64,000 bases of DNA. Source: an uncultured Aquificales bacterium (GTDB lineage Bacteria > Thermosulfidibacterota > Thermosulfidibacteria > Thermosulfidibacterales > Thermosulfidibacteraceae). How positions within the stretch are numbered: the stretch's first letter is position 1; each line of letters starts with the position of its first letter. The position numbers and the translations under genes were made by a program. Below the pieces are notes generated by a model that did no database searches, was not told the DNA's origin, and saw only the letters and a list, made by a program, of their open reading frames with translations. The stretch is from assembly GCA_964453345.1 (NCBI GenBank), contig CAYVOC010000003.1:4997-68996 (forward strand). The letters run 5' to 3'. Below, piece by piece: positions 1 to 46,480 of the stretch.

Positions 1-1826
1 GGTATCTCCTTGGATGCTATTTTCGCCATCTTTTTTAGCTCTTCCATAAGGTTGCTCTTTGTGTGGAGCCTTCCCGCCGTGTCTATTATCACCACATCCA
101 TGTTGCGGGCCTTGGCGGCCTTGACCGCATCGTATACCACCCCCGATGGGTCGGCTCCCTGCTTCTGTTTGATAACGGGGATGCCTATTCTTTCTCCCCA
201 CATCTCGAGCTGTTCTATGGCCGCAGCCCTGAAGGTGTCTCCGGCGGCGAAGAGAACCGAGTATCCCCTGTTTTTTAGAAGATACCCGAGCTTGGCTATG
301 GTGGTGGTCTTTCCGGTTCCGTTCACTCCCACCACCATTATCACGGTGGGCTTGTGGGATAGATCGAGCTTGCCCTCAGCCTTCTTTAGGATCCTGAGGA
401 TCTCCTCCTCCAATGCCCTGAGCAGTCCCTGTCCGCTTTTTATCTCGCCTATCTCTATCCTTCTTTTGAGGTTTCGTATGATCTCCTCTGTGGCCTCAAC
501 CCCCACGTCTGCGGCAAGGAGTATCTCCTCAAGCTCTTCAATGCTCACCTCTTTTATCTGCCTTTTGTCCTCTATCAGGGCCTCTATTCTGCCGAGTATG
601 GAGTCCTTGCTCTTCTTAAGTCCCTCTCTCAGGCGCTTGAAGAGGCTGTCTTCGGAGAGGATGGTTTCGCAGATGCTTACTATCTGTTGGTCTTCGGCCT
701 CCTTTTTGATCCTTTTGACCAGGGATTTGGCCTCCTTCTTGAGGGGGGTGTCCATCAGGGGTGCAAGGATCTTCAGCGCCCTGGGAAAGTCCTTCGCTTC
801 CGCGTATCCCCTGGCCAGCTTCAGCTTGAGCTGGTCGCTCAAGCTTCCGGAGATCTCAAGGGGGGAAAGGAGGCTTGTGAGATTCTTCCACATTCCCTTC
901 TCCTCGTAGTAGTCGGACAGCACCTCCAAGGCCTTTTCTTTTAGCCTTCCCGTCAGGAAGCGGAAGTTCTCCTTTATGAGGGTGATGCCCCTTTCCGGAT
1001 CCTCCTCATACAGGGCGCATCCCACTATGGTTTTGGCCTCCGGGGTTTCAATGCCCTCCACAAGTCTGCAGGCCTCCCCGGTCTTTCCCTTGGACAGCAG
1101 GGCCAGGGCCGCCTTGACCTTGAGGTTTTCTGAGTCCACTTCCTTGGCTATTCTCTCCGCTTCTTTTAGGTTTCCGGATTCCAGGTGGCACATGAGGGCC
1201 TTTTCAAGATCCCCCACCTCCTCGAAGAGGGATGCCGCCTTGCGGAAATCTCCCTGCTTGAGGTGCAGATCCGCAAGCATGTTTTTTGCCTCTTTCAGGT
1301 TGGATTTGGCCGCCTTTTCTAAGTAGTCCTTCGCCCTGTTCACTATGCCCTTTATCTGGTAGGCCCAGCCCGTGTAGAACCAGACTTCAGGGTCCTTCAC
1401 CTTCTCCACCTGGTTGAGGAAGAACAGGGCCGTGTCGGCGTCGCCCTTCTCAAGAAGTTCCCTCACAAGATCCCTGCACAGCTCCCACTTTACCACGGCC
1501 GAGGGTATCTTGCTGAAGGCCTCTTTGAATCCCTGATCGATCTTTCTCTCCTCAAGGGCGCTGAAAAGATCTCCCATGCCGTGGCCGAGACTTTTCAGCG
1601 GGGAGAGGTTTTTCTCCTTGAGATAGTCAGCGGCGGCCTTCTCTATCTCTTCCGCATCGGGCACCTTGGATGCGTCCTTTCTGACATTCTTCAGCTCCTT
1701 TTCGTTGTTCAGTATGTGGGCTATCATGAAGGCGCAGAGGGCTGCCCAGGGATCCTTCTTCTTTTTGGCGAGCTTCTTTAGATCCTTCAGCTCCTTTTTC
1801 AGGTCCTTTTCGCTTACTGTTGACAA
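1..1826 (-). CDS. ftsY: Signal recognition particle receptor FtsY with a long N-terminal TPR-like extension (3' end runs off the window)
   Basis: Manual translation of the minus strand is open from a TTG at 1826 (SD GGGAGG upstream, in-frame TAA just before) to the window edge. It contains LLAADVGVEAT, VGVNGTGKTTTIAKLG, AAGDTFRAAAIEQL and IIDTAGRLHTK. It is not in the ORF track because it has no stop in the window. Confidence 0.93.
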   Translation of the reverse strand, partial: MSTVSEKDLKKELKDLKKLAKKKKDPWAALCAFMIAHILNNEKELKNVRKDASKVPDAEEIEKAAADYLKEKNLSPLKSLGHGMGDLFSALEERKIDQGFKEAFSKIPSAVVKWELCRDLVRELLEKGDADTALFFLNQVEKVKDPEVWFYTGWAYQIKGIVNRAKDYLEKAAKSNLKEAKNMLADLHLKQGDFRKAASLFEEVGDLEKALMCHLESGNLKEAERIAKEVDSENLKVKAALALLSKGKTGEACRLVEGIETPEAKTIVGCALYEEDPERGITLIKENFRFLTGRLKEKALEVLSDYYEEKGMWKNLTSLLSPLEISGSLSDQLKLKLARGYAEAKDFPRALKILAPLMDTPLKKEAKSLVKRIKKEAEDQQIVSICETILSEDSLFKRLREGLKKSKDSILGRIEALIEDKRQIKEVSIEELEEILLAADVGVEATEEIIRNLKRRIEIGEIKSGQGLLRALEEEILRILKKAEGKLDLSHKPTVIMVVGVNGTGKTTTIAKLGYLLKNRGYSVLFAAGDTFRAAAIEQLEMWGERIGIPVIKQKQGADPSGVVYDAVKAAKARNMDVVIIDTAGRLHTKSNLMEELKKMAKIASKEI

Positions 1827-1848
1827 GGTATACCTCCCGAAGTAGCTT
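1820..1848 (+). promoter_or_regulatory. Putative sigma70 promoter for the 1859 ORF-trmB-MBL unit
   Basis: TTGACA (1820-1825), 17 nt spacer, TAGCTT (1843-1848). Confidence 0.5.
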
Positions 1849-1858
1849 TATTGCAGCC

Positions 1859-2170
1859 ATGTCTCATATCATTCTCAATGCGGATTTTGAAGATGTAAAG
1901 CGTCTGTTTGCCGGTGAGATGCTTGAGGGGGAGGGGGGAGGTGTGGTGCTCGTTGAGGCCTTCGGTTTTGTTCTGCCGGTGGTGGTTGCTCCTTCCCCCG
2001 GGGGCGTGATCGTGAGGGTGGAGAACGGGGATGGCCATCTGGATCAGGATATGGTTCAGATGGTTATAGCCTCCGTTGCTTCCCGGATAGCTGAGGCCCT
2101 TGCTGCAAAACCCGTGAGGGCTACCCTTTCGAGGAGGATTTTGCGCCACTATGGTCTACTTGACGCCTGA
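1859..2170 (+). CDS. Hypothetical protein (~103 aa)
   Basis: The ORF fills the gap between ftsY and trmB, overlaps the trmB start and has genome-typical codon use. No family recognised. Confidence 0.6.
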   Translation: MSHIILNADFEDVKRLFAGEMLEGEGGGVVLVEAFGFVLPVVVAPSPGGVIVRVENGDGHLDQDMVQMVIASVASRIAEALAAKPVRATLSRRILRHYGLLDA

Positions 2171-2951
2171 GGAGGCCTTGGGGGTTGTTCCGAGGCAGAG
2201 GGGCTGGGTTGTTGAGATAGGCTTCGGGAACGGGGCCTTTCTGAAGTGGTTGTCTACCCGCTTTGATCTCGTTCTGGGGCTGGATATAGCGAATCTCGCC
2301 TTTGAGAAGGCTAAATCCAGGCTTTCCGGGACCAATGCGGTGGTTGTTAAAAGCGATGCCCGTTTCTTTCTCAGGTATCTTGTTGCACCCCGGAGCCTGT
2401 CTGAGGTCTATATTCTCTTTCCCGATCCCTGGCCCAAAAACAGAAAGAGAAGGCTTATTGATGCGGATTTCGCCCGGCTTCTCTCCTCGCGCCTTGAGGC
2501 GGGGGGGAGGGTCTATGTGGCGACCGATCACGAGGATTACGCCCTGCAGATAGAGGAGACTCTGGGATCCGTTATGCGTAAAGATGATTGGCGGCTGCCT
2601 GTGGCCACAAAGTATATGCTCAAGTGGCAGAGGATGGGGAGGGGATACAGGGGCTTCTGCTTTGTGAACCATCGGCCCGTGGAGATGGACTTTACTCCCG
2701 CCCTCAGAAGTATTAGCTTGAGGCATGAGATAACCGCCCGTGTGGGAAGGGTTGTGAGATCGGAGGACGCCCTTCTGAAGGTTGACGGGCTTTTTGAGCG
2801 CGGCAAAAGAAGGCTTTACAGGCTGATCTACTCCGAGGGCGGTCTTTCCAGCAGATACTTCTTTCTTCAGGAGGACGGGTTTCTCTTTTCTCTGAACACC
2901 TGGGGGGAGGTCTTTCCGCCCCGGATGGTGGAGTTGCTGAAGCTTTTATAA
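2151..2951 (+). CDS. trmB: tRNA (guanine-N7)-methyltransferase with C-terminal extension
   Basis: Motifs EIGFGNG, FPDPWPK, ATDHEDYA and TKY. Confidence 0.9.
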   Translation: MVYLTPEEALGVVPRQRGWVVEIGFGNGAFLKWLSTRFDLVLGLDIANLAFEKAKSRLSGTNAVVVKSDARFFLRYLVAPRSLSEVYILFPDPWPKNRKRRLIDADFARLLSSRLEAGGRVYVATDHEDYALQIEETLGSVMRKDDWRLPVATKYMLKWQRMGRGYRGFCFVNHRPVEMDFTPALRSISLRHEITARVGRVVRSEDALLKVDGLFERGKRRLYRLIYSEGGLSSRYFFLQEDGFLFSLNTWGEVFPPRMVELLKLL

Positions 2952-2972
2952 TGTCGGCTGCGGAGGTGGGAC

Positions 2973-3821
2973 ATGTTCTACAAGGCACCTTGCAAAATAA
3001 AGGATGGTGTATGGGCGCTGGGGAATGAGCTTTTCCCGTGCTTCCTCGTTGAATGCAAGGGACGGCTTTTCCTTTTTGAGCCTTCCCTTTCGGGTGCCTA
3101 CCCTGAGCTTAAAGGGCAGATGGGGGATCTCGGTTGCTCCTTGGAGGATGTGGAGGCGGTTGTTGTGCTCCACTCCCATTACGATCATGTGATGATGCTT
3201 TTCCCCCTCCTGGATGAGGTGAAGATTCCGGTTTACGCCCACCCCTCTGCCAAGGGAGCCTTGGGTAAGCTGAAGGTTCTCTCCTTCTTCAGGGGAGCCG
3301 ATGACTACAGCAGCCGTAAGGTTTACGGGACCGTGCCTGAGTATTCCCTGAGGGAGGTGGAGTTTGAGGATATTGAGAGGCTGAAGGATATGGGGCTGGA
3401 GGTCTATCACCTTCCCGGTCACAGCCCCTGCTCTGTGGGGATAGGGTGCGGCGGTGCTCTCTTCGTTTCGGATGCCATCGGATTCTTCGGCAAGGAGCTT
3501 GGCCACAGTCCCCTCTTCTTCTACAGCTACGACCTATACATGGAATCCATAGAGAAGGTGGGCTCATTGGCGAAGGATTACGATGTGGTGATCATCGGAC
3601 ATAACTGTTATTTTGAGGGGAATGAGGCCCTGGAGGCCGTTGAGAGGGCGAGGGAGGAGGCGAGGGCCCTGAAAGATTCTATACTCTCCAGAGGCTTTAC
3701 CCCGGATAACCCCGATGAGCTGTTCAGGGAGCTGTATGTGGGAGAGTATCTCTACTATCCGCCGGAGATCATCAAGAACTGCGCCGTTTACCTCATAAAG
3801 AGGGCTTTAGAAGCCTCCTGA
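2973..3821 (+). CDS. MBL-fold metallo-hydrolase
   Basis: HSHYDH motif, PGHS, SDA and IIGH; SD GGAGGT upstream. Confidence 0.85.
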   Translation: MFYKAPCKIKDGVWALGNELFPCFLVECKGRLFLFEPSLSGAYPELKGQMGDLGCSLEDVEAVVVLHSHYDHVMMLFPLLDEVKIPVYAHPSAKGALGKLKVLSFFRGADDYSSRKVYGTVPEYSLREVEFEDIERLKDMGLEVYHLPGHSPCSVGIGCGGALFVSDAIGFFGKELGHSPLFFYSYDLYMESIEKVGSLAKDYDVVIIGHNCYFEGNEALEAVERAREEARALKDSILSRGFTPDNPDELFRELYVGEYLYYPPEIIKNCAVYLIKRALEAS

Positions 3822-4191
3822 TCCTCTCCCATGCCCTTTTATCTGCCGGGGCGAGGCTGTATTTCTCAACCTCCTCAGGGGGAACCAGGGCGACATTCTG
3901 GCACTCTATCGCCTTGGGATTCTCCTCTGTTCTTGCAAGCACAAAATGAAGCTTCACCTTCTTTTCGGGGTAGCTGTGGGTGAGGCTGAAGAGCACCTTC
4001 TCCGGTTTCACCCTTATGCCCAGCTCCTCCTCTATCTCCCTGATGAGGGCATCTTCAGGGGTCTCTCCCTCCTCGATCTTGCCCCCGGGGAACTCCCACA
4101 GGCCCTCTAAGTGATCCCCCTTCTTGCGCTGGGCAAGGATGATTCTGTCTTGCAACAGGATGACCCCTGCAACCACGTCAATCGCTTGCAT
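3793..4191 (-). CDS. mutT: MutT-like Nudix hydrolase (8-oxo-dGTP diphosphatase)
   Basis: WEFPGGKIEEGETPEDALIREIEEELG Nudix box. Start moved to ATG 4191 (SD GGAGGG). Confidence 0.85.
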   Translation of the reverse strand: MQAIDVVAGVILLQDRIILAQRKKGDHLEGLWEFPGGKIEEGETPEDALIREIEEELGIRVKPEKVLFSLTHSYPEKKVKLHFVLARTEENPKAIECQNVALVPPEEVEKYSLAPADKRAWERIRRLLKPSL

Positions 4192-4214
4192 GGCTGATCC
4201 CTCCTGCATATACT
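4186..4214 (+). promoter_or_regulatory. Putative sigma70 promoter of rsmH-murE (leaderless geometry)
   Basis: TTGCAT (4186-4191), N17, TATACT (4209-4214), then 7 nt to ATG 4222. Confidence 0.6.
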
Positions 4215-4221
4215 TGCTTGC

Positions 4222-5124
4222 ATGGGTGAGTCGGTTCATGTTCCGGTGCTTTTAGAGGAGGTTATAACCTATCTTCTGCCCTATCAAGACGGGATCATTG
4301 TGGATGCCACCGTTGGGGAAGGGGGGCATTCAAAACACATACTTGAGCGTGTCAAACCCAGAACCCTTGTTGCCGTGGACAGGGATATAGAGATCCTTTC
4401 GGTGGCGAGGGAGAGGCTGGCGGGCTACGAAAATGTTGTTTTCATATACGGGAACTACTCCAAGCTTCCGGAGCTTCTTGCGAAGGAGGGAATCGAGAGG
4501 GTTGATGCTGTTCTGATGGATCTGGGTATATCCTCCTACCATCTTGAGGATCCGGAGAGGGGATTTTCCTTCCTTGAGAAGGGTCCCTTGGACATGAGGC
4601 TCGACAGGGTCGGTTCTTCAAGGACGGCCTATGAGATTCTGAACGAGTGGTCGGAGAAGAGGCTTGCTTCTATCATTAAGGAGTATGGCGAGGAGCCCTG
4701 GGCCAAGAGGATAGCGAGAAGAATTGTTGAGATGAGGAAGGAAAGGCCCCTTAAAACCACGGAGGATCTGGTGAGAGCCGTTAAATCCGCCATCCCCAGG
4801 AAATACTGGCCCAAGAGGATACACGTTGCCACGAGAACCTTCCAGGCCATAAGAATAGCCGTGAATGAGGAGCTTGATCATCTGAAAGAGGCTTTGAAGG
4901 CGATAGTGAATCTGCTCAACCCCGGGGGCAGGCTCATTGTCATATCCTTCCACTCCCTTGAGGACAGGATAGTGAAGCACTCTTTTAAGAACTTTGAGAA
5001 AAAGGGTTGGGGATCTGTTCTCACCAAAAAGCCCCTTGTGCCGACCGAGGAGGAGGTTGAGCGCAATCCCAGGGCGAGAAGCGCCAAAATGAGGGTATTT
5101 GAGAAGAGCCATGAGGCTGAGTGA
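4222..5124 (+). CDS. rsmH: 16S rRNA m4C1402 methyltransferase
   Basis: HVPVLLEE, DATVGEGGHS, DLGISS, GPLDMR, ISFHSLEDRIVK and NPRARSAKMR. Confidence 0.97.
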   Translation: MGESVHVPVLLEEVITYLLPYQDGIIVDATVGEGGHSKHILERVKPRTLVAVDRDIEILSVARERLAGYENVVFIYGNYSKLPELLAKEGIERVDAVLMDLGISSYHLEDPERGFSFLEKGPLDMRLDRVGSSRTAYEILNEWSEKRLASIIKEYGEEPWAKRIARRIVEMRKERPLKTTEDLVRAVKSAIPRKYWPKRIHVATRTFQAIRIAVNEELDHLKEALKAIVNLLNPGGRLIVISFHSLEDRIVKHSFKNFEKKGWGSVLTKKPLVPTEEEVERNPRARSAKMRVFEKSHEAE

Positions 5125-6538
5125 GCTTGTCAGGACCGTGGGGGGGAGGGTTGTAAAGGGAAATCCTGAGGTTGAGGTGAGGGACCTTGTCTGCCATTCC
5201 CGCTTTTGCACTCCGGGATCCCTCTTTTTCGCCATGAAGGGTGAGTCCCTGGATGGGCACGATTTTGTAGGGGATGCGGTGGCGAGGGGAGCCGCTGCGG
5301 TTGCCGTCGAAAGACCCGTTGAGGTTGAGGGTGCATCCCTCTGGCTTGTGGATGATACGGCAAGGGCCTCGGTCGGGGCCTTGAGGAGGTTCTACGGGTC
5401 GGTTGATCGGAGGCTCTTTAAGGTGGGAATCACGGGCACAAACGGAAAGACAACGGTGGCTTATCTATTGTGGCAGTTCTTCAACCTGACCGGCAGACAG
5501 TGCGCCCTTGTGGGGACGGTGAAGTATGTGATCGGGGGGAGGGAGAGAAAGGCCCTGAACACCACTCCCGGGCTGTTCGAGCTGTGGAGGATCATGAAGG
5601 AAGCTAATCAGGGTGGTGATGAGGCGTTGGTTATGGAAGTCTCTTCCCACGGACTCAAGCAGGGCAGACTCGGAGATATAAGATTCCAGGTTTCCGTGTT
5701 CACCAACCTATCAAGGGATCATTTAGATTACCACGGAAGCATGGAGGATTACTTTTTAAGCAAGGCCCTTCTGTTCAGGGAGCATACGGAGGGCGTGTCC
5801 GTTGTAAATCTTGACGATCCCTGGGGAGAGAGGCTGGCGCGGGAGGTCCCCGCCAAGATTATTGGATACGGCATGGAAAAGGGTGAGGTGAGGGGAAGGG
5901 TGCTTGAGAGGTCCGTTGAGGGCATGAGGGTTGTTATTGATGGGGTTGAAGCGAGGACGAAGCTCATAGGCGATCACAATCTATACAACATCCTTGCCGC
6001 CTACGCCGTCGCCGGATCCCAGGGGCTCGGCAGCAGCTTCCTGGAGGCCCTGCCGGAGCTTGAGCCTCCCCCGGGCAGGCTTGAGCCGATAGAGGGCGAT
6101 GGTTTCTGGATCTTTGTTGACTACGCCCACACTCCGGACGCCTTGGAGAAGGTTCTTTTGGAGCTTAAGAGAATCTGTCCCGGGAGGCTCATGGTTGTGT
6201 TCGGGTGCGGCGGCGACAGGGACAGGGGCAAAAGACCCCAGATGGGCAGAATAGCGACCCAAATTGCCGATCTTGCCATTATAACCTCGGACAATCCGAG
6301 AACGGAGGATCCCGATGGCATAATAGAGGATATACTGAAGGGCGTTGTGGGGGATAACTATCTGGTGGAGGTTGACAGAAAAAGGGCCATAGAGAGGGCT
6401 ATCTTACTGGCGTCCGAAGGGGATGTGGTTCTGGTGGCAGGCAAGGGGCATGAGGATTATCAGATTGTTGGCGAAAGGAGGTTGCACTTCGACGACAGGG
6501 AGGTTGTCAGGGGCGTATTGAAAGAGAGGGGGATTTAG
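5111..6538 (+). CDS. murE: UDP-MurNAc-tripeptide synthetase (meso-DAP type)
   Basis: GITGTNGKTT, MEVSSH, FTNLSRDHLDYH, VDYAHTPDAL and the DNPR specificity motif. Confidence 0.96.
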   Translation: MRLSELVRTVGGRVVKGNPEVEVRDLVCHSRFCTPGSLFFAMKGESLDGHDFVGDAVARGAAAVAVERPVEVEGASLWLVDDTARASVGALRRFYGSVDRRLFKVGITGTNGKTTVAYLLWQFFNLTGRQCALVGTVKYVIGGRERKALNTTPGLFELWRIMKEANQGGDEALVMEVSSHGLKQGRLGDIRFQVSVFTNLSRDHLDYHGSMEDYFLSKALLFREHTEGVSVVNLDDPWGERLAREVPAKIIGYGMEKGEVRGRVLERSVEGMRVVIDGVEARTKLIGDHNLYNILAAYAVAGSQGLGSSFLEALPELEPPPGRLEPIEGDGFWIFVDYAHTPDALEKVLLELKRICPGRLMVVFGCGGDRDRGKRPQMGRIATQIADLAIITSDNPRTEDPDGIIEDILKGVVGDNYLVEVDRKRAIERAILLASEGDVVLVAGKGHEDYQIVGERRLHFDDREVVRGVLKERGI

Positions 6539-6576
6539 TGTATTGTTTCACAAAATCTCTTTTGCCGGAGGTTGCC

Positions 6577-6783
6577 ATGGAGTCCAACAGGGACTGGCTG
6601 GACTGGGTGTGGGGGTATGAGAGGCTTGGCGACTGGTTCTTCATGAGGGTTTTTCTGGCCTTGGTCTTTCTCATTATAGCAGCCGTTGTGCTCCACTTTG
6701 TGTTCCACAGCTACTACAAGATAGTTGAGGGCAAGACAGCCGTCTCCTTCATAAAGGGGATTGTGGGGCTGTTCACGGGTTAG
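6577..6783 (+). CDS. Small single-TM hypothetical protein (68 aa)
   Basis: SD GGAGG then ATG 6577; one hydrophobic stretch [19 protein letters not shown]. Confidence 0.6.
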
Positions 6784-7754
6784 TCCGTGTATCTTATCCT
6801 CGGGTCTATAAGTGCGTAGCTTATATCGGCCAGGAGGTTTCCTATAAGGGTCAGCACGGCTCCTATGGTCAAAATGCCCATTATTGTCGGGTAGTCTCTC
6901 GCCATGGCGGCCTCGTAGAACAGCTGCCCCATCCCTGGGATGGCGAAGATGGTTTCAAAGATCACGCTGCCTCCTATCAGTCCCGGGACGGAGAGTCCAA
7001 GCAGGGTGACTATGGGCATCAGGGCGTTTCTCAGAGCGTGCCTTGTTATAACGAGCCTCTCCGGCAGCCCCTTCGCCCTTGCAGTCGTTATGTAGTCCTG
7101 GTGCAGCACCTCAAGCATGCTCTGCCTCATGTAGCGGGAGAAGCCGGCGAGTCCCCCGAAGGCGCTTATGAAGACGGGAAGTATCAGGTGCTTTGCCCTG
7201 TCGATCCAGAGCGCAAGCCCTTTAAGCTGGGAGGCGTTTATGCTTTCGAGCCCCGATATGGGAAGTATTCTCAGCTTTATGCCAAAAAGTATCATTAAAA
7301 GAAGGGCAAGCCAGTATCCGGGCATGGAGAATCCTATGAAGACGAGAACCGTCAGCCCCTTGTCAAGCAGAGAATTTCTCTTAACCGCCGAGATGATCCC
7401 TATGGGTATGGCCACAATTAGTATCAGGCCTAAGGAGAGGAGGTTTATTATCAGGGTGACGGGCAGCCTCTCTTTTATCTTCTCTATCACCGGTTTTCCA
7501 TCAATAAAGGAGTTCCCGAAGTCCAGATGTATCACCCTCTTGAGCCAGATCAGATACTGCTCGTGCAGGGGCCTGTCCAGCCCGTAGAGCCTCTCCAGCT
7601 TCTTGACCGCCTCAGGCTTTACCTTGGGGTTGAAGGCCCCTTCATAAAAGGTTGGATTTCCCGGTGCAAGCCTTATAACAAAGAAGGTTATGAGGGTGAT
7701 GCCCATGAGAAGGGGCACGCAGTTTAGAAGCCTTATAACGATGTATCTCAGCAT
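6780..7754 (-). CDS. Peptide/nickel ABC transporter permease, OppB/DppB type
   Basis: RLAPGNP, GLDRPL..QY..WL, DFGNS and the EAA loop [10 protein letters not shown]. Confidence 0.92.
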
Positions 7755-7761
7755 GGAACTT

Positions 7762-7790
7762 GATATATTGGTGCGGGTTGTTTATTTCAA
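7762..7790 (-). promoter_or_regulatory. Possible sigma70 promoter of the OppB-type gene (leaderless geometry)
   Basis: Minus strand TTGAAA, N17, TATATC, then 7 nt to ATG 7754. The -10 lacks the final T. Confidence 0.4.
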
Positions 7791-7875
7791 GGGTTAGGGG
7801 TCCCTGTGATGTTGACTAAGCGGTTCTGTTTGGATAAAGGCAAAAAGCTCAAGATATCGGAGGCGGAGGTAACGG

Positions 7876-8184
7876 ATGTTTGCCATAGTTGAGACGGGCG
7901 GAAAGCAGTATGCGGTCCAGGTAGGAGATATTCTCAGGGTTGAGAAGCTCCCCTATCAGGAAGGGGAGACCATAGAGCTTGACAGGGTTCTGCTCGTTGA
8001 GGGGGATTCCAGGAAGGTTGGCACCCCCTACATTGAAGGGGCCAGGGTTGTGGCAAAGGTTCTTAAGCACGGCAGGGGCAGAAAAATTATAGGGATGAAG
8101 TTCAAGCGCAGAAAGAACTATCGCCGCAAATGGGGCCACAGGCAGTGGTTCACAGAGCTTGAGATCCTTGAAATAAAGGCTTAG
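7876..8184 (+). CDS. rplU: 50S ribosomal protein L21
   Basis: [12 protein letters not shown]...[14 protein letters not shown]. Confidence 0.98.
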
Positions 8185-8196
8185 GGAGGTTGAGCC

Positions 8197-8460
8197 ATGG
8201 CGCATAAAAAGGGCGTTGGCAGCTCTAAGAACGGAAGGGATAGCATATCAAAAAGGTTAGGTGTTAAAAGGCACGATGGCCAGTTCGTTAAGGCTGGGAA
8301 CATCATCGTTCGCCAGAGGGGAACCAAGTTCTATCCCGGCGATAATGTGGGTATGGGCAGCGATTACACCCTCTTCGCCAAGATTGATGGCTTTGTGAAG
8401 TTTGTTTCCAGAAGGGGAAGAAAATACGTCTGCGTCTATCCCCAGCCAGTATCCGCTTGA
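8197..8460 (+). CDS. rpmA: 50S ribosomal protein L27
   Basis: [16 protein letters not shown]...RQRGTK. Confidence 0.98.
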
Positions 8461-8467
8461 TGCTTGA

Positions 8468-9468
<1,001 letters not shown>

Positions 9469-9469
<1 letters not shown>

Positions 9470-10659
9470 TGGGCAAAGAGGAAAGGAGGAGGCAGCTCTT
9501 CTCCCATCCCATAAGAAGGGTTCTGGTGAAGGTTGGGTCCGGGGTTATAGCCTCCAAGGAAGGGGGATTGAGGGAGGAGAAGGTTGAGGAGGTGGTGGAT
9601 AACCTGCTCTTTCTGCGCTCCAAGGGCGTTGATGTGATACTTGTCTCGTCGGGTGCCGTTGCATGCGGTATGTCCATCCTCGGCATAAAAAAGAGGCCCG
9701 CCGAGATCCCGAAGAGGCAGGCCCTTGCGGCCGTTGGTCAGGCCCATCTTATAAGGGTGTATGAGCGATACTTTGACAGGGCCGGGGTGAAGGTGGGGCA
9801 GGTGCTTCTCACAAGGGACGATGTGGAGAACAGAAGAAGATACCTCAATGCGAAAAACGCCATAAACGAGCTTTTAAAGATGGGAATTGTTCCGGTGATA
9901 AACGAGAACGACACGGTTATGGTTGAGGAGATCAAGTTTGGGGACAACGATAGGTTATCGGCCCTGGTTGCCATTATGATGGATGTGGATCTTGTTATTA
10001 TGCTTTCCACTGTTGAGGGTCTTTACACCAAAAACCCTTCCTTGAAGGGCGCCAGGCTTATAGGCGTGGTGGATTGTGCCAAGGAGGATCCCTTTGAGAT
10101 CTGCTCTGTGGAGGGAAGCTCCTTTTGGGGAACGGGCGGGATGGAGTCAAAGCTTGTGGCTGTGTCTCAGCTTGTCTCTTCCGGCATTCCCGTGGTGATA
10201 GCCAAGGGGGAAAGGGGAGTTGTAGAGAGGATCCTCTCGGGGGAGAGTGTGGGAACCCTCTTTATCCCCGGCCGCAGGAGGGTTTCGGGCAAAAAGAGGT
10301 GGCTTGCCTTCGCCTCCCATCCTGCAGGTAGGGTGATCATAGACGACGGGGCCTATGTGGCCATAGTCAAGGGGGGCAAAAGCCTTCTTCCATCCGGTGT
10401 AATCGATGTCGAGGGAAGGTTTGAGGTGGGAGATGTGATAAGCTGCTGCACCGTTGACGGCAGGGAGGTTGCAAGGGGACTGTCCAACTACTCTTCAGAG
10501 GAGCTGGCGAAAATTAAGGGGTTGAAGACTTTTGAGATAGAGGCCGTTTTGGGTTATAAAAATTCTGATGAGGTTATACACAGGGACAACATGGTTGTGT
10601 GTGAGGGGCTTTTGACCAATACCACAACCCTGGAGGAGGTGTCGGGGAATGGATGTTAG
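9469..10659 (+). CDS. proB: Glutamate 5-kinase with PUA domain
   Basis: [30 protein letters not shown] and a C-terminal PUA (LLPSGV...IHRDNMV). Start placed at the TGATG overlap. Confidence 0.96.
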
Positions 10660-11905
10660 AGAGTATGTTCTGGAGAGGGCCAAGGCTGCCAAAAAGGCTT
10701 CAAGGGTTCTTGCCACCCTTTCAACCGATGTTAAGAACAGGGCTCTTAATCTCATGGCGGATGCCATAGAGGAGAAGGCGGATCTCATAAAAGAGGAGAA
10801 CCGCAAAGACCTTGAGGCCGGGGAGGCCAAGGGGCTTTCAAAGGCCCTCCTCGACAGGCTTCTTCTGAACGATAAGCGCATAAAGGCCATGGCGGTTGGG
10901 CTTCGTGAGATAGCTGCTCTCCCCGATCCGGTGGGTGAGGTCGTGAGGATGTGGAAAAGGCCCAACGGGCTTATGATAGGGAAGATGAGGGTGCCCCTGG
11001 GGGTTGTGGGCATAATATACGAGTCGAGGCCCAACGTGACCGCCGATGCGGCGGGCTTGTGTGTGAAGTCTGGCAACGCCGTTCTTTTGAGGGGAGGGTC
11101 CGAGGCCATTAACTCCAACAGGGTCATAGTCCAGATCCTGAGGGAGGCCTGCGCCAAGGCCGGTGTTCCCGAGGATGCGGTGAGCTTTATCGATATAACC
11201 GACAGAAGCGCGGTTAACGAGATGCTGAAGCTGGAGGATTACATTGATCTTATAGTGCCCAGGGGCGGGGAGGGGCTTATAAGGTTTGTGGCGGAAAACT
11301 CGAGGATCCCTGTGGTTTACCACTACAAGGGCGTTTGCCACACCTACGTTGACAAGTATGCGGATCTGAAGATGGCGGAAGAGATCTGCTTCAACGCCAA
11401 GGTCCAGAGGCCCGGTGTGTGCAACGCCATGGAGACCATGCTGGTTCACAGGGATGTTGCGGAAAGCTTTCTGCCCTCCATGTGCGAAAGGTTCAGAGAG
11501 GCGGGCGTTGAGATAAGGGGATGCGAAAGGACAAAGAAGATCGTTCCCTGGGTTAAGGAGGCCACCGAGGAGGACTGGTATGCCGAATACCTTGATCTGA
11601 TACTTGCCGTGAAGGTGGTTGATAGCCTTGAGGAGGCTATAGATCACATAAACACCTACGGTTCTCATCATTCAGATGCCATTGTGACGGAGAACTACGA
11701 GAGGGGTATGAGGTTTTTGAGGGAGGTTGATTCGGCTGCGGTCTATATAAACGCTTCGACCAGGTTCACCGATGGGTTTGAATTCGGCCTTGGAGCGGAG
11801 ATGGGTATATCGACCCAGAAGCTGCACGTCAGGGGTCCCATGGGGCTTGAGGATCTGACGTGTCTTAAGTTTGTGATCCTGGGTTGTGGGCAGATAAGGG
11901 AGTGA
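10649..11905 (+). CDS. proA: Gamma-glutamyl phosphate reductase
   Basis: [23 protein letters not shown] and [33 protein letters not shown]. Confidence 0.97.
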
Positions 11906-11909
11906 TGCT

Positions 11910-12596
11910 ATGGGCGAGTTGGAAAGGCTTGGAATATTTGGAGGAACCTTTAACCCCATACATGTGGGGCACCTCATCGTTGCGGAGAATGTCAGGGACA
12001 GGTTGTCTCTGGACATGGTGCTCTTTGTGCCCTCCTATATGCCTCCCCACAAAAGCGTCGATATAGCCCCCGCCAAGGACAGGCTTGAGATGGTGCGGCT
12101 GGCCGTCAGCGATAATCCCCTCTTTGGGGTTTCCGATGTGGAGGTGAAAAAGCCGGAGAAGTCCTACACGGTGAATACGCTGTGGGAGATAAAGGCCACA
12201 AGTGAGGCCGAGCTCTTCTTCCTCATAGGCTCTGAGGCCTTTTTGCAGATACACACCTGGATGGCTCCGGAGCAGCTCTTCACCATGACCAATTTCGTGG
12301 TCATGGAGAGGCCCGGTAAGGTGGTGGGTCCGGGGGACTTTGAGGAGTATCTGAAGGAGCTTGAGAGAAAACTACCCTATGTTTACTACAGGGGACACGA
12401 ACAGCTGGACGATATTCACATATACACCCTTGAGTCCGAGAAGATGGAGTCTAAGATTTATCTTATGCCGGTTATAAGCGTTGATATATCCTCCACCATG
12501 ATAAGGCGTTTCTTAAGGGAGGGGCGCAGCATCAAGTATCTGGTTCCCAAAAGCGTTGAGAACTACATAAAAGAGAAGGGGCTCTATAGGCCATGA
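11910..12596 (+). CDS. nadD: Nicotinate-nucleotide adenylyltransferase
   Basis: [25 protein letters not shown] and ISSTMIR. Confidence 0.95.
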
Positions 12597-46406: not shown

Positions 46407-46480
46407 TGCCCCCGGGGCGACTTGAACGCCCGACCTACGGCTCCGGAGGCCGTCGCTCTATCCAGCTGAGCTACGGGGGC
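46407..46480 (-). tRNA. tRNA-Arg(CCG), CCA not encoded
   Basis: Reverse complement GCCCCCG-TAGCTCAGCTGGATAGAGC-G-ACGGC-CT-CCG-GA-GCCGT-AGGTC-GGGCG-TTCAAGT-CGCCC-CGGGGGC-A folds into a full cloverleaf. Confidence 0.95.

Follow-up and report, generated by a model that had tools for sequence, protein, structure and literature searches.

The window analysed here, a 64-kb (64,000-nucleotide) stretch of DNA from an uncultured bacterium of the family Thermosulfidibacteraceae, carries at its left edge an ftsY gene for the SRP receptor (SRP, signal recognition particle). In its product the NG GTPase of FtsY and the membrane-targeting helix alpha-N1 are joined, almost certainly within one polypeptide, to a conserved N-terminal domain of ~390 aa. 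Residues 1-390 are predicted with high confidence to form a folded alpha-solenoid of the tetratricopeptide repeat (TPR) type. The explanation we favour overall, and consider probable, is that this domain serves FtsY as a structured replacement for the A-domain tether. Coordinates of all features are collected in Table 1.

One reading frame spans the repeat region and the GTPase

An earlier note on this DNA, made from the sequence alone, had proposed that a single uninterrupted frame joins helical repeats to the NG domain, and the frame is indeed open for 608 codons from position 1826 to the window edge. A full-length public copy that is 99% identical (P0001, on the Joint Genome Institute (JGI) contig L011) has 695 residues; relative to this length, 87 codons at the end of the gene fall outside the window. 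The open frame is preceded by in-frame stops at 4, 12 and 14 codons upstream, and GGAGG is found 5-8 nt before the ftsY start in all seven orthologous loci examined. The start codon is TTG in the clade of ~695-aa proteins (the window and the loci L001, L002, L005 and L006, at positions 714, 6001, 3907 and 1105, respectively) and ATG in the 729-aa clade; the conserved rare TTG behind a strong GGAGG may set a low level of ftsY translation. Protein conservation among the relatives reaches up to residue K7. The public record of the orthologue P0173 (L006 1105-3204, JAADEW010000108.1), named 'signal recognition particle-docking protein FtsY' in NCBI nr, is annotated from an internal Met and has 493 aa; the TTG preceded by a Shine-Dalgarno sequence gives 699 aa, so that 206 residues at the front of the domain are missing from the public version. 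A plus-strand open reading frame (ORF) of 299 aa at 10-909 is the antisense shadow of ftsY.

Relatives were gathered as 6 clusters in a single-protein search, 11 clusters in a profile search, 4 GTDB species representatives and 4 JGI contigs; in the scan of genome contigs a single protein gave no match and the alignment-based scan gave the 4 species representatives. All relatives found (loci L001-L014, all family clusters) have a continuous frame with the P-loop and DTFRAAA. The ftsY locus is held by eight hydrothermal-vent metagenome runs, and zero indels and 10 substitutions are seen in contigs that come from four metagenome runs belonging to several studies. None of the substitutions introduces a stop: seven are synonymous, and S79N, K363R and Y515H are conservative. 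We rejected a lost stop codon or split genes, given that the relatives and the independent contigs have the same single frame with no stop or frameshift. Comparison with orthologues and contig support had been set beforehand as the test of the fusion, and revealed no stop, frameshift or split genes; the fusion described in the earlier note stands, because the continuous frame, the Shine-Dalgarno sequence and the residue conservation are present in all orthologues.

That the architecture is an artefact, be it of a lost stop, a frameshift or a chimeric assembly, or that translation starts internally and yields the NG part alone, is extremely improbable. Such an origin would be in keeping with the rare TTG start, the annotation of P0173 from an internal Met and the RNA runs that lack the locus, but the same frame recurs in every locus examined at 29-99% identity, a strong Shine-Dalgarno sequence precedes the upstream start in all of them, and residue conservation begins at K7. 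Structure prediction with AlphaFold2 (AF2) is moreover confident over residues 10-390, and the independent contigs, free of indels, differ mostly by synonymous changes.

The C-terminal part is a bona fide FtsY NG

On the NCBIfam equivalog model for FtsY (TIGR00064, cut-off 260.7 bits), full-length P0001 scores 362.7 bits and the relatives P0007 and P0010 score 366.7 and 335.3 bits, identifying the C-terminal part as a bona fide FtsY NG. The window fragment alone reaches 225.4 bits, below the cut-off because the gene is cut by the window edge. An identity as FlhF was rejected, with TIGR03499 giving only 87.6 bits against a cut-off of 174.15. The Pfam PF00448 match spans aa 493-605 within the window; the TKLD and GVGE motifs lie outside the window and are present in full-length P0001. 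Over aa ~394-695 the NG domain shares ~50% identity with the FtsY NG structures that have been solved, and every motif aligns, the top structure-sequence matches being Thermotoga maritima FtsY (324.8 bits) and Escherichia coli FtsY NG+1 (~315 bits).

The structure alignment begins at LFKRLREGL, which corresponds to FFARLKRSL of E. coli. The alpha-N1 helix aligns residue for residue with 'FFARLKRSLLKTKENL' of E. coli NG+1 and 'GLFDFLKKGLQKTKETF' of T. maritima, and it stands directly before the N domain, where 'SLFKRLREGLKKSK' pairs with E. coli 'FFARLKRSLLKTK'. As this membrane-targeting helix (SLFKRLREGL) starts at aa 394, nt 647, the previous placement of the NG start near 645 was accurate. 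Neither ffh nor 4.5S RNA is found in the 64-kb window, in which the Rfam scan yielded only a tRNA.

The N-terminal domain is predicted to be a TPR-type solenoid

Since Foldseek with the full-length model matched FtsY NG only, the N-terminal domain was modelled and searched alone. The AF2 model of the N-terminal 405 aa (6 sequences) has a predicted local distance difference test (pLDDT) of 91.0 and a predicted template modelling score (pTM) of 0.74, with ~24 helices and zero strands; residues 1-390 of the full-length AF2 model concur, at pLDDT 85-93. Foldseek against the PDB matched this domain to TPR-type superhelices only (E 6e-6 to 4e-4, 11-19% identity, template modelling score at most 0.58), among them an 8-repeat consensus TPR, OGT, SPY, APC/C subunits, IFT-A, P58IPK and LapB. 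A sequence-profile search of the PDB yields the same TPR classes, with E down to 9e-9.

Pfam places TPR models above their gathering cut-offs at aa 146-204 only (TPR_19 35.7, cut-off 25; TPR_2 29.3, cut-off 27; TPR_14 26.2, cut-off 23.5). Only two or three of the repeats are canonical 34-residue TPRs, and the rest are TPR-like by structure prediction, not by sequence profile; helix pairs range from ~20 to 36 residues, and aa 190-260 resemble the shorter repeats of the IFT or clathrin type. Profile matches at aa 180-260 (window ~1050-1290, minus strand) include IFT144, IFT140, IFT122, WDR19 and the clathrin heavy chain (E 9e-9 to 3e-3), a likeness to IFT-A and clathrin that is probably a resemblance at the level of the repeat only. 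MamA, LapB and SctY were rejected as identities, as their NCBIfam scores of ~30 bits against cut-offs of 70-395 amount to generic TPR noise. The region had been described in the earlier note as ~390 aa of TPR-like repeats. An all-helical solenoid is predicted there, and the three repeats that had been quoted (aa 145-174, 179-204 and 333-354) each fall on a predicted helix pair; the description needs narrowing in that Pfam TPRs are confined to aa 146-204 and the first 40 aa are helices outside the repeats.

Within the TPR block, G153, Y156, K159, G160, A165, K166, E170, A172 and K174 are invariant across subclades. In the conserved block aa 121-197, the conservation of the polar residues E141, K159, K166, E170 and K174 exceeds the structural TPR consensus. 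Conserved residues of the surface type (K, E, N and Y at aa 141-174) suggest a binding site, which argues against self-association of a solenoid that has no external partner. TPR superhelices can dimerise, and the organisms are thermophiles from vent deposits, as would suit a solenoid that self-associates or that stabilises or spaces the receptor at high temperature, but other thermophiles (Thermotoga and Thermodesulfovibrio) keep FtsYs of ~300 aa, and we regard this explanation as very improbable.

Basic helices flank the solenoid

The N terminus is formed by an amphipathic helix (aa 5-24) in which subclades only 29% identical over the domain all keep K7, K10, K11, K14, K18, K21 and K22. All seven lysines fall inside an arc of 120 degrees, and leucines line the opposite face; the helix has a hydrophobic moment of 0.53-0.62 and a net charge of +4 to +6, and AF2 places it at 6-22 with pLDDT above 90. 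In every family member the first 26 residues carry a charge of +5 to +8. At the other end of the domain an invariant basic helix (A366, K367 and K374) runs into the membrane-targeting helix, the basic and targeting elements together occupying aa 363-414. The net charge of the central solenoid varies between members from -17 to +7.

The extension was set apart in the earlier note from the usual states of the FtsY N terminus (an acidic disordered A-domain, a transmembrane anchor or no extension), and isoelectric point (pI), hydropathy and AF2 agree with this. A transmembrane anchor was rejected, the Kyte-Doolittle maximum over 19 residues being below 1.6 in all homologues (0.67-1.55) with a hydrophobic stretch of 13-14 residues. 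An acidic disordered A-domain was likewise rejected in view of a pI of 5.5-8.9 (5.55-8.94 across homologues) and the all-helical AF2 model at pLDDT 91.

A putative structured substitute for the A-domain tether

We hypothesise that the TPR-type domain is a structured substitute for the A-domain tether and stands in the A-domain's place. The lysine-stripe helix (aa 5-24) and the basic and membrane-targeting helices (aa 363-414) would attach the receptor to anionic lipid at two sites, and the rigid TPR superhelix between the basic ends would probably offer a specific surface for protein docking, its partner most likely being the translocon (SecYEG or YidC) or the ribosome-SRP complex. The NG domain would behave like that of other FtsYs, forming the GTP-dependent heterodimer with Ffh and handing over the nascent chain. 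The presence of the lysine-stripe helix and the retention of the membrane-targeting helix, two features that the earlier note had not picked up, suggest that the tethering logic of the A-domain is kept and not that a wholly new function is added; because net charge in the central solenoid varies between members, a specific interface is suggested rather than electrostatic attraction. We judge the case for a tether or adaptor as the mechanism to be evenly balanced.

Several points weigh against the tether reading. None of the RNA runs holds the ftsY locus. The full-length AF2 model has a pTM of 0.47; its shallow alignment leaves NG badly modelled, and the geometry of the TPR domain relative to NG and to the membrane carries no confidence. 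The TPR fold matches are generic and uninformative on the ligand. The lysine stripe could bind RNA (rRNA or 4.5S RNA) and not lipid, or the Leu face of its helix may merely pack on the solenoid; a second, short FtsY could also be encoded elsewhere in the same genomes.

A folded scaffold fused to FtsY had been taken in the earlier note to suggest extra partners such as the translocon, chaperones or cargo; the scaffold holds up, whereas the partners do not follow from it, the fold matches being to generic TPRs. A version of this idea, by analogy with Tom70, Sgt2, SRP72 and cpSRP43, makes the solenoid a receptor for a chaperone, a class of nascent cargo, the ribosome or the SRP itself (Ffh/4.5S RNA), and would have it regulate or specialise targeting. 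We hold it to be unlikely. TPR superhelices typically dock peptides or proteins, as in the fold matches OGT, APC/C, P58IPK and LapB, the most conserved block (aa 121-197) exceeds the structural TPR consensus, and the lysine stripe could contact RNA; yet the flanking basic and membrane-targeting helices are arranged like the lipid-binding elements of the E. coli A-domain, and no candidate partner gene is linked to ftsY in the conserved neighbourhood. Bacterial chaperones are not known to carry the eukaryotic EEVD tail, which counts against a chaperone receptor.

A dedicated docking module similar to the SRX/SR-beta arrangement of SR-alpha is similarly doubtful. Its binding would free the membrane-targeting helix and activate the GTPase, the partner being loops of SecYEG or YidC, a ribosomal protein or a lineage-specific membrane protein, so that a folded domain would gate receptor activation in place of a disordered electrostatic tether.

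Of all parts of the bacterial SRP receptor, the N-terminal region is the one least understood: no structure shows that of E. coli FtsY, although it tethers the receptor to lipid and SecYEG (PMC5094494). A rigid 390-residue version represents a natural, structurally tractable form of the tether, and, if the tether reading is true, a folded scaffold can replace the tether while both flanking basic lipid-binding helices stay. The architecture would be moderately surprising to an SRP specialist, and structurally useful if a partner is found. At the level of annotation, at least one public record hides the domain through an internal Met start.

The family maps to the order Thermosulfidibacterales

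The family comprises about a dozen clusters at 90% identity, with ~20 member sequences, all from metagenome-assembled genomes (MAGs) or metagenomes, and divides into two or three subclades, down to 29% identity. A scan of 1.84 billion representative proteins with a profile hidden Markov model of the N-terminal domain gave whole-domain matches only for P0005, P0007 and P0010, of which P0007 and P0010 have the SRP-GTPase motifs and P0005, at 348 aa, is a fragment from this family; the remaining matches cover a generic TPR stretch at aa 170-260 only, with no SRP-GTPase motifs among the matches listed. According to Zhou et al. 2022 (PMC9793634; supplementary tables and trees), L003 belongs to the genus Thermosulfidibacter as sister to T. 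takaii, L005 to the genus JAADEW01 of the family Thermosulfidibacteraceae, and the 729-aa clade (JALVIX01) to a novel family of the order Thermosulfidibacterales. Two other MAGs carry the NCBI labels 'Aquificota bacterium' and 'Deferribacteres bacterium'. The family thus maps to the order Thermosulfidibacterales, for which the N-terminal domain is a candidate lineage signature. A GC-rich relative, P0174/L010 (L010 1-1351, JGI 3300010332), is cut by the start of its contig, has 61% NG identity and is followed by a gene with an SLT domain. The C-terminal part of its domain is homologous (hhalign 92.5%, E = 5e-7), and it may represent a third subclade, perhaps of family B14-G1.

The 120 closest NG sequences listed have a median of 307 aa and no comparable extension except for P0172, P0173 and P0174, the first two being truncated calls of the same family's gene; the named ones include Thermodesulfovibrio, Geobacter and Desulfobacterota. 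Because the nearest NG relatives outside the family are ~307 aa long and lack the extension, the domain was most likely gained once, in this lineage, at or near the base of the Thermosulfidibacterales. The word-indexed search has gaps: the NG query did not list the family's full-length members, and the N-terminal profile missed P0173. Thermosulfidibacter takaii is in no match list, an absence that these gaps render uninformative; should this cultured species carry the domain, the question of the partner becomes directly testable. Literature searches found no description of a TPR-FtsY.

Locus and neighbouring genes

Gene order is kept across subclades, with trmB and an ORF of 100 aa on one side of ftsY, the ORF divergent from it, and genes for an SLT-domain protein, a thiL-like protein, SIR2 and RelA following ftsY on the other. 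The ftsY locus is housekeeping in character, and the neighbours at window 2151-12596 are ordinary housekeeping genes. Conserved gene order across subclades argues against a specialised FtsY paralogue, akin to FlhF for flagella, that would work beside a short FtsY of the usual kind from another locus. Recruitment of SRP-type GTPases with new N-terminal domains has happened repeatedly, FlhF being one example, and a flagellin gene lies near the 729-aa copy. The NG part clears the FtsY equivalog cut-off by a wide margin and falls well short of that of FlhF, however, no short FtsY more than 61% identical is among the NG matches listed, and every MAG seen has one family gene per locus, making a paralogue improbable.

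The conserved ~100-aa ORF ('MSHIILNADFEDVKRL...'; window 1862-2170, plus strand) is divergent from ftsY, runs 20 nt into trmB (start at 2151) and matches no Pfam family. Its counterparts lie at 5665-5967 in L002, 3567-3929 in L005 and 766-1071 in L006. In the 729-aa clade TrmB has 392 aa, and since its first 100 residues are weakly collinear with the ORF (E = 0.11), the ~100-aa protein may be fused to TrmB there. The gene for the SLT-domain protein, a lytic transglycosylase, always comes after ftsY (L001 2746-3327, L002 8039-8653, L005 5942-6541, L006 3149-3757, L007 6976-7632 and L010 1341-1994). The two genes share ~55 nt at the 3′ end of ftsY in the ~695-aa clade, an arrangement suggestive of translational coupling.

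Table 1 Features of the ftsY gene, its product and the neighbouring genes in the window.
Feature	Position	Strand	Basis or remark
ftsY coding sequence, codons 1-608 of 695	1..1826	minus	open frame; 3′ end past the left edge of the window
ftsY TTG start codon	1824..1826	minus	first start codon in frame; TTG kept in the ~695-aa clade
Shine-Dalgarno GGGAGG	1833..1838	minus	6-nt spacer to the ftsY start
N-terminal amphipathic lysine-stripe helix, aa 5-24, SEKDLKKELKDLKKLAKKKK	1755..1814	minus	conservation, hydrophobic moment, AF2
Short hydrophobic helix, aa 26-39, PWAALCAFMIAHIL	1710..1751	minus	AF2 helix 26-39; too short and weak for a membrane span
Predicted alpha-solenoid, ~22 helices, TPR-like, aa 42-390	657..1703	minus	AF2, Foldseek, PDB profile search
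Two canonical TPR motifs, aa 145-204	1215..1394	minus	Pfam; most conserved block, GWAYxxKGIxNxAKxxxEKAAK
Membrane-targeting amphipathic helix (alpha-N1), aa 394-414, SLFKRLREGLKKSKDSILGRI	585..647	minus	structure alignment; hydrophobic moment 0.54
N domain (SRP54_N four-helix bundle), aa 412-476	399..593	minus	Pfam PF02881, E = 4.8e-11
G domain (SRP-type GTPase), aa 493-608	1..350	minus	Pfam PF00448, E = 2.6e-45; cut by the window edge
P-loop GVNGTGKTT	303-329	minus	motif position
DTFRAAA	219-239	minus	motif position
DTAGR	69-83	minus	motif position
trmB-like methyltransferase	2151-2951	plus	strand per gene order; window neighbour
MBL-fold hydrolase	2973-3821		window neighbour
NUDIX	3793-4239	minus	window neighbour
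rsmH/mraW	4222-5124		window neighbour
murE-like ligase	5099-6538		window neighbour
ABC permease	6780-7754	minus	window neighbour
obg	8468-9469		window neighbour
proB	9439-10659		window neighbour
proA-like	10649-11905		window neighbour
nadD-like	11910-12596		window neighbour
tRNA	46407-46480		sole Rfam match in the window

Comparison with known systems

The A-domain of E. coli FtsY has ~195 aa, a pI of 4.08 and 25% Glu, and is disordered by nuclear magnetic resonance (PMC5094494). E. coli FtsY attaches to lipid through its basic N terminus and the membrane-targeting helix, and to SecYEG through the central A-domain, whose acidic centre touches basic SecY loops non-specifically (PMC5094494). The protein described here resembles E. 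coli FtsY (2yhs, 2qy9) in an NG that is ~50% identical, in alpha-N1 at the A/N junction and in a basic extreme N terminus. It differs in that a ~390-aa domain predicted to be a folded solenoid takes the place of the disordered acidic A-domain, with no sequence similarity between the two extensions. The short FtsYs of T. maritima (1vma), Thermus aquaticus, Thermodesulfovibrio and Geobacter, of 300-312 aa, start at the membrane-targeting helix; they share this N-terminal amphipathic helix with the window protein, which has 393 extra residues ahead of it, and the NG domains of Thermodesulfovibrio, Geobacter and Desulfobacterota are 55-61% identical.

Generic TPR superhelices (consensus TPR 8chy, OGT 1w3b, SPY 8dtf, APC/C, IFT-A and LapB 4zlh) have the same right-handed helix-turn-helix array as is predicted here, at 11-19% identity and with no specific family tie, and none of them is fused to an SRP GTPase. 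Eukaryotic SR-alpha, whose SRX domain is bound to SR-beta, and FlhF, with its B domain, likewise combine an NG GTPase with a lineage-specific N-terminal module for anchoring or positioning. Neither shows homology to the N-terminal domain described here, and the FlhF models score below their cut-off; SRX moreover has an alpha/beta longin-like fold, whereas the present domain is predicted to be all-alpha. A transmembrane N terminus, as described for FtsY of some actinobacteria, would call for a hydrophobic segment of ~20 residues. The protein of the Thermosulfidibacterales is a conserved, lineage-specific variant of the known FtsY, with an extension unlike the A-domain, a transmembrane anchor or the B domain of FlhF.

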